DNA of 64,000 bases, taken from the NCBI GenBank assembly GCA_964539925.1, contig CAZILB010000002.1, forward strand, positions 178 to 64,177, in the 5' to 3' direction. Numbering within the stretch: the stretch's first letter is position 1; every line of letters starts with the position of its first letter. A program made the position numbers and the translations under genes. A model generated the notes under the pieces. It saw nothing but the letters and a program-made list of their open reading frames with translations. It did no database searches and was not told the DNA's origin. Source of the stretch: an uncultured Syntrophobacter sp. (lineage in GTDB: Bacteria; Desulfobacterota; Binatia; UBA9968). Shown here in pieces: positions 56,377-64,000 of this stretch.

Positions 56377-58149
56377 ATGAGTAGTCAAACAGGCTCGGTC
56401 CCGGAAAACACACAGGTCCACAAATGGGTCAAAGAGATCGCCGCCATGTGCCAACCGGAAAGCGTTTACTGGTGCGACGGCTCGGAAGAGGAAAAAGAAC
56501 GGTTGACGCAAGTCGCGGTGCAAACCGGTGATCTGATGCCGCTCAATCAAAAGGAACTCCCTGGCTGCTACCTGCACCGCAGCGCGATCAACGACGTGGC
56601 GCGCACGGAAAACCTCACTTTCGTCTGCACCGAACGGCAAGAAGATGCGGGGCCGAATAACAACTGGATGGCGCCGGCGGAATCCTACGAACGGCTGTCA
56701 AAAATCTTTGCCGGCGCCATGCGCGGGCGGACCCTATACGTCATTCCTTTCTTGATGGGGCCGCAGGGGTCGTCGTTTAGCAAAGTCGGCATTCAGGTCA
56801 CCGACAGCGTCTATGTCGTGCTCAATATGCGGCTGATGACGCGCATGGGCCAAGTCGCCCTTGATCACCTGGGCGCATCCGACGATTTTACCCGTTGTCT
56901 CCACTCCAAGGCGGACCTCGACATTGATCGTCGCTTTATTTGCCACTATCCGCAGGACAACACGATCTGGAGCGTCGGCTCCGGCTACGGCGGCAATGCT
57001 TTGCTGGCGAAAAAATGCCTGGCCCTGCGCATCGCCAGCAAACTGGGACAAAAGGAAGGTTGGCTGGCCGAGCATATGTTGATCGTCGGCGTCGAAAATC
57101 CCGCCGGCGAAATCACTTATATCTGCGGCGCCTTTCCGAGCGCCTGCGGCAAGACGAACCTGGCCATGTTGGTGCCCCCCGAAACCATGAAGGGATGGAA
57201 AATCCACACCATCGGCGACGATATTTCCTGGCTGCGCGTGGGCGACGACGGGCGGCTATGGGCGATCAATCCCGAAGCCGGGTTCTTCGGCGTCGCCCCC
57301 GGCACGGGTTCAAAGACCAACCCAAATGCCATGGCCACGATCAAAAAAGATACGATTTTTACCAATGTCGCATTGCGCTCGGACGGCACGGTATGGTGGG
57401 AGGGGCATGATGACCCGACGCCAGCCAATGCCCACGATTGGCGCGGCCGCCCGTGGGACCCTAAAAGCGGTCATCCGGCGGCGCATCCCAACGCCCGCTT
57501 TACCGTATCCATGAAACAATGTCCGACCTACTCCTCGCAATGGGAAAAGCCCGAGGGCGTGCCGATCAGTGCGATTCTTTTCGGTGCGCGCCGGCAAAAA
57601 CTGATTCCGCTCGTTTTCCAGTCGTTTAATTGGCAGCACGGCACTTTCCTGGGGGCCACTCTCGCCTCCGAGACCACCGCCGCGGCCACCGGGGCCGTGG
57701 GCGTGGTGCGCCGCGATCCGATGGCCATGCTGCCATTTTGCGGATACAACATGGGCGACTACTGGGCCCATTGGCTGTCGATGTCGAAGCGCTTGACCAA
57801 CCCGCCAAAAATTTTTCGTGTCAACTGGTTCCAACGCAACGATCAGGGCAAGTTTATCTGGCCGGGTTTCGGGGAAAATTTACGTGTCCTGCGCTGGGTT
57901 ATCGAGCGCTCCAAAGGCGCGGGTGCCGCACAGGAGACCGCCATCGGCTATGTGCCCAAAGCGTCTGCCCTCAACGGCGACGGCGGCAACGTCTCGAAGT
58001 CCGACCTCGACCAATTGGTCGCCGTCGACCGCGACGGCTGGAAGCACAATCTGAAAAGCCAGGGCGAATACTTCGATACCTTCGGCGACCATTTGCCGGC
58101 CGGGATTAAAGAAGAACACAAAGCATTGGCGATTCGCCTTAAAGGCTAG
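56377..58149 (+). CDS. pckG: phosphoenolpyruvate carboxykinase (GTP)
   Basis: 590 aa. GTP-PEPCK motifs (GSGYGGNALL, kinase-1a FPSACGKTN, WLRVGDDG, FGVAPGT). Confidence 0.9.
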   Translation: MSSQTGSVPENTQVHKWVKEIAAMCQPESVYWCDGSEEEKERLTQVAVQTGDLMPLNQKELPGCYLHRSAINDVARTENLTFVCTERQEDAGPNNNWMAPAESYERLSKIFAGAMRGRTLYVIPFLMGPQGSSFSKVGIQVTDSVYVVLNMRLMTRMGQVALDHLGASDDFTRCLHSKADLDIDRRFICHYPQDNTIWSVGSGYGGNALLAKKCLALRIASKLGQKEGWLAEHMLIVGVENPAGEITYICGAFPSACGKTNLAMLVPPETMKGWKIHTIGDDISWLRVGDDGRLWAINPEAGFFGVAPGTGSKTNPNAMATIKKDTIFTNVALRSDGTVWWEGHDDPTPANAHDWRGRPWDPKSGHPAAHPNARFTVSMKQCPTYSSQWEKPEGVPISAILFGARRQKLIPLVFQSFNWQHGTFLGATLASETTAAATGAVGVVRRDPMAMLPFCGYNMGDYWAHWLSMSKRLTNPPKIFRVNWFQRNDQGKFIWPGFGENLRVLRWVIERSKGAGAAQETAIGYVPKASALNGDGGNVSKSDLDQLVAVDRDGWKHNLKSQGEYFDTFGDHLPAGIKEEHKALAIRLKG

Positions 58150-58165
58150 GCACGGAGGTAGGATT

Positions 58166-58477
58166 ATGGCGCGCGGACATCACGATGTCGGCGGTCTCCC
58201 CGGAGCGGGGCAGATCGATCAAACGCAACATCAGCTTTCCGATTGGGAGATTCTTGCCGACGCCGTCAACCAGGCACTCGGCGCTCGCGGCATCAAGCGC
58301 ACCGACGAAATGCGCCGGGCCCGCGAAGAAATGGACTCCGCAGCCTACCGCGATATGAGTTATTATGAGCGCTGGATTGCCAGCATCGAGACTATCCTGA
58401 TTGAAAAGAACATCCTGACCAGGGAAGAGATCGACCGCAGGCTCGCCGAATTCGAATCCAAGTGGGGCGAGCCGTGA
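58166..58477 (+). CDS. nitrile hydratase / thiocyanate hydrolase beta-subunit, N-terminal-half homologue (split beta, part 1)
   Basis: MARGHHDVGGLPGAG parallels the MNGxHDxGG start of NHase beta. DEMRRAREEMDSAAYRDMSYYERWIASIETILIEKNILTREEIDRR aligns to the beta N-domain helix bundle. GGAGG RBS 7 bp upstream. The ORF ends where a normal beta subunit would continue. Confidence 0.75.
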   Translation: MARGHHDVGGLPGAGQIDQTQHQLSDWEILADAVNQALGARGIKRTDEMRRAREEMDSAAYRDMSYYERWIASIETILIEKNILTREEIDRRLAEFESKWGEP

Positions 58478-58800
58478 GCCCGGCCGGCGTTAAATTCAAA
58501 CCGGGCGACCGGGTGAGAGTCAAGTTCGAGGACCGCCCGGGCCACATCCGCACGCCCTGGTACATTCGCGGCAAGTCCGGATGGATCGAGCGGGTGTACG
58601 GCGAGTTCTTAAACCCCGAGGAACTGGCTTACGGCCGCGACGGGCTGCCCAAGAGGACGCTTTACCTTGTTGCTTTTCATCAGAGCGATGTTTGGGGGCC
58701 AACGGCGGCATCGAACGATAAAGTTCTCGTCGACATCTATGAGCACTGGCTTGATCCCGTCGATGCAAAAGGAGACCGAGATGAACGACCCATTAACTGA
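58474..58800 (+). CDS. nitrile hydratase / thiocyanate hydrolase beta-subunit, C-terminal-half homologue (split beta, part 2)
   Basis: FKPGDRVRVKFEDRPGHIRTPWYIRGKSGWIERVYG...VWGP...VLVDIYEHWLDPV matches the NHase beta C-terminal beta-barrel nearly motif for motif. Probable GTG start overlapping the part-1 TGA (GTGA). An in-frame ATG at 58462 is the alternative. Confidence 0.75.
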   Translation: MSPAGVKFKPGDRVRVKFEDRPGHIRTPWYIRGKSGWIERVYGEFLNPEELAYGRDGLPKRTLYLVAFHQSDVWGPTAASNDKVLVDIYEHWLDPVDAKGDRDERPIN

Positions 58801-59407
58801 ATCTCACGGCCACGATCATCCCAGGCATGAGTTGAGTCACTTTGCCAAGCGGATTTACGCGATCCGCGACCTGCTCGTCGAAAAGGGCGTCATTAGCGAA
58901 AAGGACATCCAATGCCAGATCGAATACCAGGAGGCGCGCTCGCCGGCCAACGGCGCCAAACTGGTCGCGCGCGCCTGGGTCGATGGGGCTTTCAAAAAGC
59001 GCCTTATCGACGATCCGAAGGCAGCCTGCTCCGAAATGGGCATCGACGCCACCGCGATCAACGAATTCGTAGTTCTAGAGAACACGGAAAAGCTTCGCCA
59101 CATGGTGGTTTGCACTTTGTGTTCCTGCTACCCTCGCCCGATCCTGGGACGCCCGCCCGACTGGTATAAAAGCTTCAACTATCGCCAGCGTGCGGTCGTC
59201 GATCCGCGCGGCGTCATGCGCGAGTTCGGACTCGATCTGTCCGGCGGCGTGGAAGTGCGGGTGCATGACAGTACCGCCGATATCCGATACTTGGTCTTGC
59301 CGCTTCGCCCCAAGGGCACAGAGGGTTGGAGCGAAGCGGATCTGGCCAAACTCGTGACCCGCGACAGCATGATCGGTGTCACGGACCCTTTATCTGAACT
59401 CCCTTGA
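58781..59407 (+). CDS. nitrile hydratase alpha-subunit homologue, cobalt-type metal site (VCTLCSCY)
   Basis: HMVVCTLCSCYPRPILG contains the Cys-x-Leu-Cys-Ser-Cys claw. Thr and Tyr at the flanking positions mark the Co-type. Flanking KAWVD..FKKRLI and GWSEADLAKLVTRDSMIG match NHase alpha throughout. Start at MNDPLTE, overlapping part-2 by 20 bp. Confidence 0.85.
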   Translation: MNDPLTESHGHDHPRHELSHFAKRIYAIRDLLVEKGVISEKDIQCQIEYQEARSPANGAKLVARAWVDGAFKKRLIDDPKAACSEMGIDATAINEFVVLENTEKLRHMVVCTLCSCYPRPILGRPPDWYKSFNYRQRAVVDPRGVMREFGLDLSGGVEVRVHDSTADIRYLVLPLRPKGTEGWSEADLAKLVTRDSMIGVTDPLSELP

Positions 59408-59575: not shown

Positions 59576-60082
59576 ATGAACCGCCCTTCAAAAATTGGAT
59601 ATCACGCTTCGTCTCGGATGAAACACGCCGTCGCCCTGCGCGCCATTGGACAGGACTTTGACAGGCGCAATTTGAAATCCTTCGATATTCAGTGCGAAGG
59701 GAACGAATATTTCGCGCAATGCGGCTACCAGGATCCGCCTTCCGAGATGCCGGTCTCAATTCACTACACTTTGAAAGACCTTGAAGACCTGGATGAAACC
59801 GGCGTGGAGTACCGCGGTAATACTTCATCCTCCAAGGATTTTTTCGATCAAATTCAGATACTGCGCACCCTCGGCGGCTATATAGACAAAATTGAGGGGG
59901 ATTTAATCCGCATTACCAATAATCAGCCTTTTGGCGCTGAGTCCGGATTTAAGATCGAATATTTCGATGCGGACGGCGAGCGCGTGATCGAGGAGCGAAC
60001 CAGCCAGGCAGTCTACGACATGTGCGTCGCGATGTATAAACAAAGAGGGCGACTTACCGGCACCGGGGACCGAATTCGATAG
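59576..60082 (+). CDS. hypothetical protein, no recognisable domain, compositionally atypical (about 50% GC); longer version could start at 59444
   Basis: Open frame 59444-60082 on the same strand, directly after NHase-alpha. Acidic/aromatic-rich ([31 protein letters not shown]). GC is clearly below the 60-65% of flanking genes. Start uncertain (MNRPSKIG at 59576 or MKHAVAL at 59618). Confidence 0.4.
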
Positions 60083-60098: not shown

Positions 60099-60659
60099 TT
60101 GAATGGCCGTACAGGGCTCGCCCGGTTATCGCTCCTATACACAGGGTTCAAGAATTTGGATACGACCTTGGACTATTATTCCGTGCTCGGCATAGCGCCC
60201 GGGGCCTCGGCGGAAGAGATCAAGCGCGCCTACCGCAAGATGGTTTTCCGCTTTCATCCTGATAGAAATCCCGGCAATGAGGAAGCGGTCGTTAAATTCA
60301 AACAGGTTTTGGACGCTTATTCTGTCCTGACCGATGCCGCCAAACGGGCCGAGTACGACGGCGCCACCCAAACCGGCGAAGGCAAATCGCATCACGGTGA
60401 TGAACAACGCCGCGAGCCGCGCGAAAGCGGCGCGACAAGCGGAAACGGCTTCGGTTTCGATTTCGCTCAAGGGTTCAAAGCCAATGTCGAGGCCGAACCC
60501 AAATGCCCTGTTTGCTCGATTGCCGGTGTGGAAAACATCGTCTCGCGCCGCGGCGCCAGCGGCACAACGCGCGGCAAACAATTCGTCACCGCGCCGTTCA
60601 ATGTCATCTTCTGCAAAACCTGCGGCTATGTCTACGGCGTGACCGCTAACCTTTCTTGA
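60099..60659 (+). CDS. J-domain (DnaJ-like, HPD motif) protein with C-terminal CxxC...CxxC zinc ribbon
   Basis: [63 protein letters not shown] is a complete J-domain. The C-terminus has CPVCS...CKTCG. Gly/Phe-like GNGFGFDF linker. The start may be further in than 60099. Confidence 0.7.
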
Positions 60660-60775: not shown

Positions 60776-61654
60776 TCACCGTGCCGGCATCGCGGGCGAT
60801 GCCGCTCCCTCGCACATATCGACGAAGACGCCATCGGGACTCGAGCATTGATAGCGGCCGTGGCGACACGATGCAATGAGCGCAACCCGCCGCTCGCCCT
60901 CGCTCGGTTCGCTGATCACGCGTTCGCGCATCTCGGGGTCGGTTTCGCGCAACCCCACGAGATCATTTTTCACGGCGTCCACGCTCTCCACCTGGAAGCC
61001 GACATGCTCCAGGCCCGGGCGGTCAATGCCGGCGCCTTCGAAGTCGCTCATCTTCCACGGCGCGATGATCAGCGTCATCTTGCCGTCGGTGAGGTAAAAA
61101 TTCGGATCTTCGAGCGCCTTGTCCGCTTCCTTGAGATCGAACAGGTCGCGATAGAACTCCGCGATCGCCGCAGGGTTCATCACCCGAAGTTTCAGATGAT
61201 GGATGCGCCGCGGCGGCTCACGCGGCTGATCCGCCTGCGGCGAACCGGGTCGAACCGCATAGACATCGCGACGGTTGGACATGCCTTCTTGCGTGAGATC
61301 GAAATAATTGCCTTCGGGATCGTGGGCGCCGTAGGTCGCAAACGGCCGGTTCGAAGGCCGTTTAAGCACCCCCACCTCCGGATACCTTTTTTTGATGCGC
61401 GCGATCGCCTCGTTGACGTCGTCAACGTCGACGCCGAAGTGGTGCAACCCCGGCACATAACCGGGTTTTCTGCCGATGACGGTCACGCCGACGTAGCCGT
61501 CGCTGAGGCTCACCGCATAGTTGGTGCGAATCGCTTTCTGTTCCTCCTCGGAGCCCGGCTTCGATCGCTTCATACCGAAAACCGACTCGTAAAACTTCGC
61601 CTCGCGCACAAAATTTTCGCTGACGATGGCGAAGTGTTGAATCCGGGTGAGCAT
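60776..61654 (-). CDS. VOC-family (glyoxalase/bleomycin-resistance/extradiol-dioxygenase fold) two-domain protein
   Basis: Two tandem beta-alpha-beta-beta-beta modules, each opening with the VOC signature (IQHFAIVSENF ... HHFGVDVDD; IHHLKLRVMNP ... EHVGFQVES). RBS GGGAGG before the ATG. Confidence 0.7.
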   Translation of the reverse strand: MLTRIQHFAIVSENFVREAKFYESVFGMKRSKPGSEEEQKAIRTNYAVSLSDGYVGVTVIGRKPGYVPGLHHFGVDVDDVNEAIARIKKRYPEVGVLKRPSNRPFATYGAHDPEGNYFDLTQEGMSNRRDVYAVRPGSPQADQPREPPRRIHHLKLRVMNPAAIAEFYRDLFDLKEADKALEDPNFYLTDGKMTLIIAPWKMSDFEGAGIDRPGLEHVGFQVESVDAVKNDLVGLRETDPEMRERVISEPSEGERRVALIASCRHGRYQCSSPDGVFVDMCEGAASPAMPAR

Positions 61655-61664
61655 AGGCCTCCCT

Positions 61665-61790
61665 TCGGTCGGCTTGGTTCAAGCCGTTCAAATCGTTCAA
61701 GTCGTTCAAACCGTTGACCGCTTAAAACCCGGTTGGTTTGAACCTCCGAGACGGCTTGAACGTTTTGAACTTTTTGAACGTCTTGAACAG
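61665..61790. repeat. 9-bp-periodic hexamer array in inverted arrangement: (GTTCAAnnn)x4-5 ... (TTGAACnnn)x4-5
   Basis: The + strand reads GGTTCAAgccGTTCAAatcGTTCAAgtcGTTCAAaccGTTGACc - 27 nt - gTTTGAACctccgagacggcTTGAACgttTTGAACtttTTGAACgtcTTGAACag. It lies between the SBP stop (61794) and the VOC start (61654), and the two arms are reverse complements of each other. Confidence 0.8.
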
Positions 61791-61793
61791 TGA

Positions 61794-62771
61794 CTATTTC
61801 CCCGCGAGCTTCTTGAAGAATCCTTCCTTTTCGAGCTCGTCCAAAACACTCTCGTCCACGTATCTTTCGAGTTTCGGATCCAGCTTGGGATTTTCCTTGG
61901 CGATCAGCTCGATGGTATTGTGCATACCTGCGGGAGAGACCCGTATCGGAAAAGAAAACTGGGGCGCAAAAAACTTATAGGTCTCTGCCAGCGCTTTGAC
62001 ATTATCCTGCTTCAGTCTTCGCCGGAGAACCGAGATTCCTTTTTCTTGGTCGGTCATAAACTGGTAGGTCGCTTCGGCGTAGGCCATCATGAAGCGTTTC
62101 ACGGCATTGCGATTCTGCGCCAGGAAAGAGCGGCGCACCGCGACTGCAGACATGGGATACTCGGCCGACTTAAATTCGCTCAAATTGCCAAGCTCGTTCA
62201 TTCCCATCCGCAGCGCCTCGCCCAGCTCCGGATGAGAAAGCACCGTGGCGTCGAGCGCCTTGGTGCTAAGCGCGACCAGCCGGGTCGCCCCGCCCCCGGC
62301 TTGCAGGACAGTGACTTTCTCCCGTGGTATTTTCCACTCCCGAAGCAACAGAGTCACGGCGAGATCGTTGGCGCCGCCGAACCCCACGATGCCGATTTTC
62401 TTTCCAATGAGGTCCGCCGGCTGGCGAATTTCTTTGACGCTCACAAAACTGAACGGAAATTTGTTCAACGATCCCCCGACCATGACGATGTCGGCGCCGC
62501 GCATAACGGCCCGAATATGGCCGGCCGCATCGACATGGGCAAATTGGATGCTATCGCCGACCAGGGCCTGTATCTGGCGGGCCGTGCCGGGAACCAAAAC
62601 CGTTTCGCCGTCAATGCCGTATTTTTTTAGCAGCCCCAAATCTTTGGCGGCCCACATCGACACCTGAAATCCCGCAAAGCCGGCGTATCCCATCATAAAG
62701 CGTTCCTGAGCAGCGGCGGCGGTTGGCAGGACGAGGAGAATCGCCGCAATACCCATCAATCGGCTCAACAT
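61794..62771 (-). CDS. ABC transporter substrate-binding protein (NMT1-like, NitT/TauT family), orphan
   Basis: Signal peptide MLSRLMGIAAILLVLPTAAAAQ. Type-II PBP sequence similar in architecture to the SBP at 38619-39644. No permease or ATPase gene adjacent. Confidence 0.7.
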   Translation of the reverse strand: MLSRLMGIAAILLVLPTAAAAQERFMMGYAGFAGFQVSMWAAKDLGLLKKYGIDGETVLVPGTARQIQALVGDSIQFAHVDAAGHIRAVMRGADIVMVGGSLNKFPFSFVSVKEIRQPADLIGKKIGIVGFGGANDLAVTLLLREWKIPREKVTVLQAGGGATRLVALSTKALDATVLSHPELGEALRMGMNELGNLSEFKSAEYPMSAVAVRRSFLAQNRNAVKRFMMAYAEATYQFMTDQEKGISVLRRRLKQDNVKALAETYKFFAPQFSFPIRVSPAGMHNTIELIAKENPKLDPKLERYVDESVLDELEKEGFFKKLAGK

Positions 62772-62819
62772 GGTTTCGGCCCCCCTTTTTCTTGAAATGT
62801 GCCTCGTTTTAAAAATCAA

Positions 62820-64000
62820 TTAGGTTTCGCGTATCGTTCGATTCCGGCTTTCGATCTCTTTGACATGTTGCTTGCAGTCCTTCTCGGCGGGAATCAGCTG
62901 GGAAATCACGATGAGGTGCGGGAAGTGGTTCACGGAAGGTTCTCTAAGCACATGCTGCGGATCGCGTCCGTCGCGGACGTCCTTGACAGCGTTTGCCAGC
63001 AATTTTCGCGCGGCGACGATCGCTTTGTCCGAAGAGACCAGATGCTCTGCGGCGCGGTCCTGAGTCGCTCCCTGGGATTCCGTTGCGAAGGCGTCATGGG
63101 CTTGGAAGTTGAACCCCATGCCGGTGAAAGTCTGGGTTTTCATCGACTCACGGTCCTGCTGGTATCGATTCGCGGCGTTGCGTGTCAAACGATAATCCAC
63201 CGTCAGATCGGCGCGGTTCTTCTCGCGCAGCTCCGCCGCCAGCGCTCTTTCCCGGCTAAACAGGAACACGTACTTCCAGTGGTTCGTGTCGTCGATGGGC
63301 ACATGCCAGTGCACGGCGTAGCCTTCGCCGACGGTCGAACCGCCGAACGCAGACAGATTGGGCATGACGAAATTCGTCACTCGCAGATAGCGCTTGTCCG
63401 ATCCCGAGTCCCGGAGCGTATAGATTCGAAGGCCAAAATCCGTCAGTTCCACTTCGATCCTCGGCGCCACATCCACGGCAAGCAACGCGTTGTCCGTGGC
63501 GTTGCCGCCGCGCACGATGCGCGGCGGCAACGCCACTTGCGCCTCGGAAAGAAATTGATGCAAAAAAGACAGGTGGACGGGATCGATGTTGCCTTCGTTG
63601 CCCTGCAAGAAATTGCACTGGTAAAAGATCTTGGTGACCGCGCGTTGCTCGGCCGGCAGCGCGAGAAACTCGTAGTTCGGCAAGAGCGGCGGCTCGCCCG
63701 GCCCCATGTAGGTAAATAGGACACCGCCTGCTTCGAGGCAAGGGTGAGCGCGATGGCGAATTGCGTGGCGGTTGGCGCCGCCGCCGGGTTCTCCCGGCTG
63801 TTCGATCACGCAGCCCGTAACATCGTAAAGCCAGCCGTGATAGAGGCAGCGAAGTCCGCCGTTCTCGACTCGGCCGTAACTCAAGTCGGTCCCGCGATGC
63901 GAACAATGGAGCCCGAGCAAACCCGGCCGTCCCTGATCGTCGCGAAAAAGAACCAGGTCCTCACCCATGATCCGCACCGTCAATGGCGCACCGCCCTCCG
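62820..64000 (-). CDS. Rieske [2Fe-2S] non-heme-iron oxygenase alpha subunit (5'-truncated by the window edge)
   Basis: Rieske motif CSHRG-x17-CLYHGW. Catalytic-domain iron ligands in NEGNIDPVHLSFLH and a downstream Asp. The frame is open to position 64000, so the true N-terminus lies outside the window. Confidence 0.75.
   Translation of the reverse strand, partial: EGGAPLTVRIMGEDLVLFRDDQGRPGLLGLHCSHRGTDLSYGRVENGGLRCLYHGWLYDVTGCVIEQPGEPGGGANRHAIRHRAHPCLEAGGVLFTYMGPGEPPLLPNYEFLALPAEQRAVTKIFYQCNFLQGNEGNIDPVHLSFLHQFLSEAQVALPPRIVRGGNATDNALLAVDVAPRIEVELTDFGLRIYTLRDSGSDKRYLRVTNFVMPNLSAFGGSTVGEGYAVHWHVPIDDTNHWKYVFLFSRERALAAELREKNRADLTVDYRLTRNAANRYQQDRESMKTQTFTGMGFNFQAHDAFATESQGATQDRAAEHLVSSDKAIVAARKLLANAVKDVRDGRDPQHVLREPSVNHFPHLIVISQLIPAEKDCKQHVKEIESRNRTIRET

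Follow-up and report, generated by a model that had tools for sequence, protein, structure and literature searches.

A probable three-subunit, cobalt-type nitrile hydratase with a split beta subunit in a genome of the Binatia

A three-gene locus was analysed in a stretch of 64,000 nucleotides (nt) from contig CAZILB010000002.1 of an uncultured Binatia bacterium (assembly GCA_964539925.1), the whole of which is hereafter called the window. Judged from its sequence, the locus very probably encodes a three-subunit nitrile hydratase (NHase) of the cobalt type, which would convert nitriles into amides (R-CN + H2O -> R-CONH2) and which belongs to a clade with a beta subunit divided between two genes, being of the same kind as the NHase of Streptomyces canus (ScNHase). 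The three genes, here called betaN, betaC and alpha, and the metal claw found in the last of them are as follows:

58166..58477, + strand: betaN gene, 103 amino acids (aa), N-terminal helical half of the NHase beta subunit, AnhD-like (PF21006 NHase_beta_N, E 6.7e-23)
58474 or 58462..58800, + strand: betaC gene, 108 or 112 aa, C-terminal SH3-like barrel half of the beta subunit, AnhE-like (PF02211 NHase_beta_C, E 4.8e-22)
58781..59407, + strand: alpha gene, 208 aa, ATG start, catalytic metal-binding subunit (PF02979 NHase_alpha, E 1.1e-79)
59111..59137, + strand: metal claw Cys111-Thr-Leu-Cys114-Ser115-Cys116-Tyr-Pro-Arg119, read from the alpha sequence

The domain matches of the three proteins are far beyond chance. 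The original prediction, made from the letters of the window, had placed three overlapping + strand open reading frames (ORFs) of about 103, 108 and 208 aa at these positions, in the order betaN, betaC and alpha, and had proposed comparing them with the Pfam models of the beta and alpha subunits; both the ORF list and the matches to PF21006, PF02211 and PF02979 bear this out, with 112 aa for betaC if the alternative GTG is taken. In particular, two start codons were considered for betaC: the GTG at 58474, whose GTGA overlaps the stop of betaN by 4 nt (108 aa), and the GTG at 58462, which extends the overlap to 16 nt (112 aa). The upstream position is ATG or GTG in relatives, yet it also lies inside a conserved Trp codon of betaN, so that the exact start is ambiguous; the overlap between betaN and betaC holds with either choice. 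The alpha gene starts 20 nt ahead of the betaC stop and is preceded by an AAGGAG Shine-Dalgarno sequence, and another one (GGAGG, 58154-58158) lies ahead of betaN, inside the 16-nt gap that separates it from the upstream gene pckG. Given these overlaps (4 or 16 nt, then 20 nt), the translational coupling suggested by the original prediction is plausible, and a coupled, roughly equimolar translation of the three subunits, with masses estimated from their lengths at ~11.6, 12.3 and 23.4 kDa, is therefore probable.

The correspondence of the two small proteins to the halves of a beta subunit was also found with other references. Along the NCBIfam model of the single beta subunit (TIGR03888), betaN spans positions 2-100 and betaC positions 136-226 out of 226, with scores of 78.6 and 80.4 bits, respectively, each about half of the cutoff of 152.2, so that the single-beta threshold is not reached. 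In the NHase beta chains of the PDB, betaN aligns to residues 3-96 and betaC to residues 128-228, while the best PDB matches of alpha were the alpha chains of cobalt-type NHases (E 1e-64 to 1e-53). Moreover, the sequence and the motif table agree with the earlier description of a complete alpha subunit carrying a VCTLCSCY cobalt claw, which occupies 59108-59131 (59111-59131 for the C-T-L-C-S-C-Y part) and whose Thr and Tyr are the cobalt-type signature. Both beta halves were aligned to the verified beta sequence of the Pseudonocardia thermophila NHase (PtNHase), where Arg50 and Tyr66 of betaN align with betaArg52 and betaTyr68, and Arg26 of betaC (numbered from 58474) aligns with betaArg157; betaC has the GHIR motif as well. 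A reading of alpha as the precursor of a ribosomally synthesised and post-translationally modified peptide was rejected, the protein being full length with an intact claw; the weak matches of alpha to NHLP and Frankia-peptide models are explained by the leader peptides of those families being known homologues of NHase alpha.

According to the mechanism proposed for this enzyme, alpha would bind Co(III) through Cys111, Cys114, Ser115 and Cys116, and two of the claw cysteines would be oxidised to Cys-SO2H and Cys-SOH, by analogy with the solved NHases. For their part, betaN would supply Arg50 and Tyr66 and betaC would supply Arg26, the counterparts of which in fused-beta enzymes hydrogen-bond the oxidised claw. 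Because the two halves together supply these claw-contacting Arg and Tyr residues, betaN and betaC are expected to rebuild a normal beta subunit without its linker, in a heteromer with alpha. Finally, if ScNHase is taken as the model, betaN itself is probably the cobalt-insertion and self-subunit-swapping chaperone, no separate activator being encoded.

The two beta ORFs overlap in different frames, an arrangement that the gain or loss of one base in a fused gene could create. An alternative to a genuine split was thus weighed, in which an ordinary single beta gene would appear divided owing to a frameshift from assembly or sequencing, or would recently have become a pseudogene; its probability is negligible. 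A total of 1379 betaN relatives were found among 1.84 billion cluster representatives at E <= 0.001, and 126 of the best 150 were stand-alone proteins (<=160 aa). All but 4 of the 120 best homologues were exactly 103 aa long, with identities of 83-92%, in assemblies from JGI, ENA, NCBI and Logan, and several were labelled as metagenome-assembled genomes (MAGs) of Candidatus Binatia or of a ‘Deltaproteobacteria bacterium’; the same three-gene layout was present on independent contigs. Hence, more than 100 independently assembled homologues have a betaN that ends at the same place, contrary to the sequencing frameshift that the original prediction had named as a possible refutation, and the split itself is kept in hundreds of independent assemblies. 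Furthermore, the stop codon at the betaN/betaC junction is a true one, conserved in relatives whose relative reading frames differ, and the linker of ~35 residues between the two domains of the fused PtNHase beta subunit is wholly missing from the aligned halves. Since the 103-aa betaN is conserved, the junction stop is real in differing frames and the linker is missing, a frameshift artefact can, on these sequences, be regarded as excluded for practical purposes. Separate genes also occur in most of the nearest loci, from many phyla (see below), and the split enzyme of S. canus has been shown to be active (PMC7329996).

To survey the distribution of the split form, one genome per GTDB species was scanned with an alignment of alpha, giving at least 600 matches, and the 80 loci most similar to the alpha of the window were examined and classified by hidden Markov models on stop-to-stop ORFs. 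As the similarity to this alpha, together with two motifs, governed the choice of these loci, they describe its sequence neighbourhood and not the proportion of split forms among all NHases. A total of 60 loci presented betaN-betaC-alpha as separate ORFs, followed in frequency by partial or truncated loci (10), the order betaC-alpha-betaN (4), a fused beta subunit (3), betaN and alpha in one ORF without betaC (2), and three betaN copies ahead of betaC-alpha (1). Thus, betaN and betaC were separate genes in 65 of the 80 nearest species-representative loci, 61 of which kept the order found in the window. The surveyed loci appeared in Binatia, Thermodesulfobacteriota, Rubrobacteraceae, Dehalococcoidia, Spirochaetia and Alpha-, Beta- and Gammaproteobacteria, as well as in Actinomycetes (including Streptomyces), Nitrospinota, Latescibacterota and Chitinophagaceae. 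A further profile search with 30 diverse betaN sequences was dominated by Binatia matches, with few distant loci (L005 and L006). Overall, separate beta halves are the norm in the large clade around the alpha of the window, which extends over multiple phyla.

A neighbour-joining tree of the alpha sequences was built with the Fe-type alpha 2qdy_A as its root. In it, the three fused-beta loci joined the cobalt-type NHases of the PDB, while every split locus was placed on the other side, together with the gamma subunit of thiocyanate hydrolase (SCNase), and all the canonical alphas stayed outside the core split loci in 44 out of 60 bootstrap replicates. The alpha of the window sits in the split clade, apart from PtNHase, the Bacillus RAPc8 enzyme and the three fused-beta loci. 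Two outcomes named at the outset as evidence against a distinct split lineage, an alpha clustering with ordinary two-subunit NHases and an unsplit beta in all relatives, were therefore not found. An independent character agreeing with this tree is the residue located three positions after the last claw cysteine (Cys+3), which corresponds to Arg119 in the alpha of the window. Trp occupied this position in the Fe-type reference and in 5/5 canonical cobalt-type alphas, and in none of the 84 split or partial loci (which had Arg in 67 cases, Thr in 8, Lys in 6 and other residues in 3). The sequences hence indicate that the split-beta enzymes form a deep and widespread clade marked by the loss of Trp at Cys+3, usually replaced by Arg, so that the split form would not be a rarity limited to Streptomyces and Thiobacillus. 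SCNase shares the Arg at this position (2dd4_C, sequence verified) and may share the ancestry of the split clade.

Some of the surveyed sequences presented other arrangements. A Dehalococcoidia MAG (L024:3453-5576) has three tandem betaN paralogues before betaC and alpha, and the extra copies may be activator-like chaperones. In two MAGs of Stellaceae/Alphaproteobacteria (L057:4599-5555 and L067:4608-5555), a single ORF without internal stops holds both the betaN and the alpha domain, and no sign of betaC was found within 5 kb; this could represent a betaN-alpha fusion variant without the barrel half. Further divergent NHase-like loci, with 53-56% alpha identity, were found in Binatia (L028 and a second Binatia locus, L040:4287-5606). 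The alpha of L040, which has an ORF with a weak betaN-like N-terminal region, was the nearest neighbour of SCNase gamma in the neighbour-joining tree, and this locus may be an SCNase-like paralogue. In addition, five proteins of ~190-210 aa (P0124, P0126, P0152, P0174 and P0200) contain two tandem betaN-like stretches and represent betaN-betaN duplications, not betaN-betaC fusions.

The placement of SCNase gamma bears on the function of the locus, since SCNase (SCN- + 2 H2O -> COS + NH3 + OH-) is the other known three-subunit member of the superfamily. The original prediction had considered that NHase and SCNase could not be told apart from the metal motif; this holds for the motif, and the question is less open than stated once the complete alpha is scored. 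Specifically, with a score of 257.4 alpha lies above the cutoff (249.85) of TIGR01323, the equivalog model of NHase alpha, and with 214.4 bits it falls short of the cutoff (291.45) of TIGR03887, that of SCNase gamma. The identities of alpha with the different references were the following:

Thermodesulfobacteriota-labelled MAG (L013): 71%
Streptomyces and Microvirga plasmid three-subunit loci (L089 and L090): 55%
Fused-beta loci: 52-55%
PDB cobalt-type NHases: 47-52%
SCNase gamma: 45%
Fe-type NHase: 41%

An SCNase at this locus is very unlikely, even though several observations point in its direction. The gene order is the same (betaN, betaC and alpha-type), SCNase gamma (2dd4_C) falls on the split-beta side of the tree and not with the canonical cobalt-type NHases, the stretch CSCYPRPILG of the alpha of the window is identical to that of SCNase gamma around its Arg136, which aligns with Arg119 and where canonical NHases have Trp, and betaN carries an Arg-Arg pair where the beta subunit of SCNase has Arg-Arg-Arg. 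However, the Arg at Cys+3 does not discriminate between the two enzymes because it is common to 67 of the 84 split or partial loci, and it is also found in L089 (Streptomyces) and L090 (Microvirga), which belong to genera with characterised three-subunit NHases; judged from these comparisons, the CSCYPRPILG stretch and the extra Arg of betaN are features of the clade and not indicators of thiocyanate specificity. The tree placement of SCNase gamma is moreover unstable, falling inside the core split clade in 18 out of 60 bootstrap replicates, and its identity to alpha is lower than that of the cobalt-type NHase alphas (45% vs. 47-55%). In the alignments to the PDB chains, betaN matches residues 45-140 of 2dd4_B and betaC residues 35-124 of 2dd4_A, the N-terminal extensions of the SCNase beta (~44 aa out of 157 aa) and alpha (~30 aa out of 126 aa) subunits being absent, like the gamma insertion (~15 residues over the aligned span); the subunit sizes had already been noted as unlike those of SCNase. 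Furthermore, no sulfur-oxidation or COS-handling genes were present in the annotated 43.7-64 kb of the window.

The assignment as a three-subunit NHase has, for its part, some points against it. The cutoff of TIGR01323 was cleared narrowly, the tree is a neighbour-joining one only and has moderate support, and the alpha of the window is ~50-55% identical to the Streptomyces and Microvirga three-subunit alphas (L055, L089 and L090), which serve as proxies for the characterised enzymes. The Arg at Cys+3, being common to SCNase gamma, leaves room for a non-standard, possibly anionic substrate. In addition, a search of the whole window for amidase-signature motifs found none, and neither a cobalt-transporter nor an amidase gene is present in its annotated 43.7-64 kb; the rest of the pathway is therefore not visible in the parts searched.

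Regarding the genomic context, the genes adjacent to the locus are the following:

56377..58149, + strand: pckG, GTP-dependent phosphoenolpyruvate carboxykinase (NF003253, E 3.7e-267), ending 16 nt before betaN
59618..60082, + strand: orphan gene, 154 aa, lineage-specific, in conserved order with the NHase genes among close Binatia relatives
60099..60659, + strand: gene of a small J-domain protein (PF00226, E 2e-24) that ends in a zinc-ribbon-like tail (CxxC...CxxC), in conserved order with the NHase and orphan genes in all close Binatia loci

The genes rimP-nusA-infB-DUF503-rbfA-truB are located upstream of pckG, in agreement with the earlier placement of the cluster 16 bp behind pckG and after the nusA-infB-rbfA-truB genes. 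No terminator-like site was found between pckG and betaN, and a promoter and terminator scan gave nothing above the shuffled expectation; pckG and the NHase genes are possibly co-transcribed. The orphan had no match to any Pfam or NCBIfam family, which supports the earlier remark that no canonical activator follows, and no second betaN-like ORF was present in the 64-kb window. An Rfam scan of 54-62 kb gave one sub-threshold chance match (‘miRNA precursor’), at the repeat region 61677-61788.

The complete block rimP-nusA-infB-DUF503-rbfA-truB-pckG-betaN-betaC-alpha-orphan-DnaJ recurs in close Binatia relatives (L001-L004, L007 and L009-L011), where L001-L004 are one protein on four contigs and short contigs show the block only in part. 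It was absent in the next relatives (L012, L013, L005 and L006), and the linkage to pckG was likewise conserved only in the close Binatia. To examine neighbours more broadly, all the ORFs in ~85 loci were clustered and Pfam was run on the adjacent downstream (79 loci) and upstream (73 loci) ORFs. No neighbour recurred in more than 4 of the 79 downstream or 73 upstream positions, and the families listed for them included no amidase, aldoxime dehydratase or activator; NicO cobalt/nickel transporters occurred three times, and many neighbours were housekeeping genes (EF-G, ribosomal protein S2, SurE, FliG and lipid A acyltransferase). The housekeeping context, which had been described as unexpected, is instead typical of a module without conserved neighbours that often sits among such genes. 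Being typical of a self-contained three-gene module, this setting is uninformative on function.

A more specific reading of the neighbourhood would give the enzyme a dedicated physiological role in Binatia, acting on one endogenous or abundant environmental nitrile instead of being a general-purpose NHase, co-expressed with pckG and matured with the help of the orphan and J-domain proteins. This reading is unlikely, and quite unlikely in its stronger version, in which the enzyme would be constitutive, housekeeping-linked and co-transcribed with pckG, acting on a specific endogenous or ubiquitous nitrile, and the orphan (with a new fold) and the J-domain/zinc-ribbon protein would form a hitherto unknown maturation or partner system replacing the activator. 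It draws on the block from pckG to DnaJ being conserved in each of the six close Binatia loci covered, on the 16-nt gap lacking a terminator-like site, on the conservation of the NHase subunits within the close Binatia group (80-90%), which suggests purifying selection, and on another three-subunit NHase, ToyJKL, serving a single metabolite, toyocamycin, according to the cited literature and general knowledge. However, this synteny is limited to one shallow clade with general conservation of gene order, the whole nusA-infB-truB block included, and more distant split-beta loci share no neighbour with it. Moreover, the orphan evolves much faster than the NHase (~50-60% identity) and showed no recognisable fold or metal-binding similarity.

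Beyond the J-domain gene, three - strand genes (60776-63983) encode a glyoxalase/dioxygenase-like protein of two domains, a periplasmic binding protein resembling NMT1/THI5 and a LigXa/VanA-type Rieske oxygenase; they suggest a cluster for the catabolism of aromatic compounds, with no relation to the NHase. Two inverted arrays of 9-bp tandem repeats (61677-61788), formed by four copies of GTTCAAnCC at 61677-61715 and 3.7 copies of TTGAACGTT at 61756-61788, lie between the glyoxalase-like gene (60776-61654, - strand) and the gene of the NMT1-like binding protein (61794-62819, - strand), and could together fold into a long hairpin or act as a repeated operator.

Taken as a three-subunit cobalt-type NHase, the locus is an ordinary member of a split-beta design that is common across many bacterial phyla and was already characterised in Streptomyces. 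With it, the uncultured phylum of the Binatia (Binatota) joins the hosts of activator-free three-subunit cobalt NHases, whose maturation without a helper protein makes them interesting for biocatalysis; no paper naming both nitrile hydratase and Binatota was found in the literature searched. The practical value is modest, and the current understanding of the NHase family is unchanged. The physiological substrate is not established for most NHases.

Finally, the locus was compared with the known systems. The canonical cobalt NHases (Pseudonocardia thermophila 1ire, Bacillus RAPc8 2dpp and Pseudomonas putida 3qxe) have the same alpha fold and cobalt claw, with 47-52% alpha identity, and their residues aligning with betaArg52, betaTyr68 and betaArg157 are conserved in the window. 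In contrast, they have a single beta subunit of ~220-230 aa with a linker and Trp at Cys+3, and they depend on a downstream activator of the P14K/NhlE type. Canonical NHase genes commonly sit with amidase and regulator genes. As for SCNase of Thiobacillus thioparus (ScnB/ScnA/ScnC, PDB 2dd4), its beta subunit likewise comprises two chains, the order being again betaN, betaC and alpha-type, and its gamma subunit shares the CTLCSCYPRPILG claw region, including the Arg at Cys+3, but it differs from the window in the long N-terminal extensions of both beta-derived chains and in the gamma insertion.

Among the three-subunit NHases, ToyJKL of Streptomyces rimosus/rimofaciens is also of the cobalt type and has an alpha subunit and two small beta-derived ones; unlike the genes of the window, it belongs to a nucleoside-antibiotic biosynthetic cluster and has a dedicated substrate, toyocamycin. 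Its gene order is alpha first, toyJ-toyK-toyL. The enzyme of Microvirga flocculans is a cobalt-type NHase with a split beta subunit as well, although it is plasmid-borne and its alpha gene lies between the genes of the two beta parts (PMC11573777), unlike the betaN-betaC-alpha order of the window. A plasmid locus of Microvirga terrae (L090), with 55% alpha identity, presents the order betaC-alpha-betaN. RefSeq annotates equivalent operons on this plasmid and on a Streptomyces plasmid (L089), and in both of them a HoxN/NixA-type cobalt transporter gene is located ~1 kb downstream.

SCNase and ToyJKL were named by the original prediction as split-beta relatives, but the closest precedent, ScNHase, was missed. 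In S. canus CGMCC 13662, the genes follow the order anhD (betaN), anhE (betaC) and anhA (alpha), the subunits have 10.4, 11.4 and 21.3 kDa, and there is no activator gene; the enzyme binds cobalt and is active as AnhD2E2A2, AnhD being a metal and self-subunit-swapping chaperone, and its substrates are neonicotinoid N-cyanoimines (Guo et al. 2020, PMC7329996, and a 2019 study cited there). According to a review, ScNHase and the three-subunit toyocamycin NHase form one branch. The host is an actinomycetote in the case of ScNHase and a member of the Binatia in that of the window, and the Streptomyces loci used as proxies of ScNHase (L055 and L089) fall in the other half of the split clade, with 50-55% alpha identity. 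Nevertheless, the two systems share the betaN-betaC-alpha order, the cobalt type, three small subunits of very similar sizes and the absence of an activator gene.

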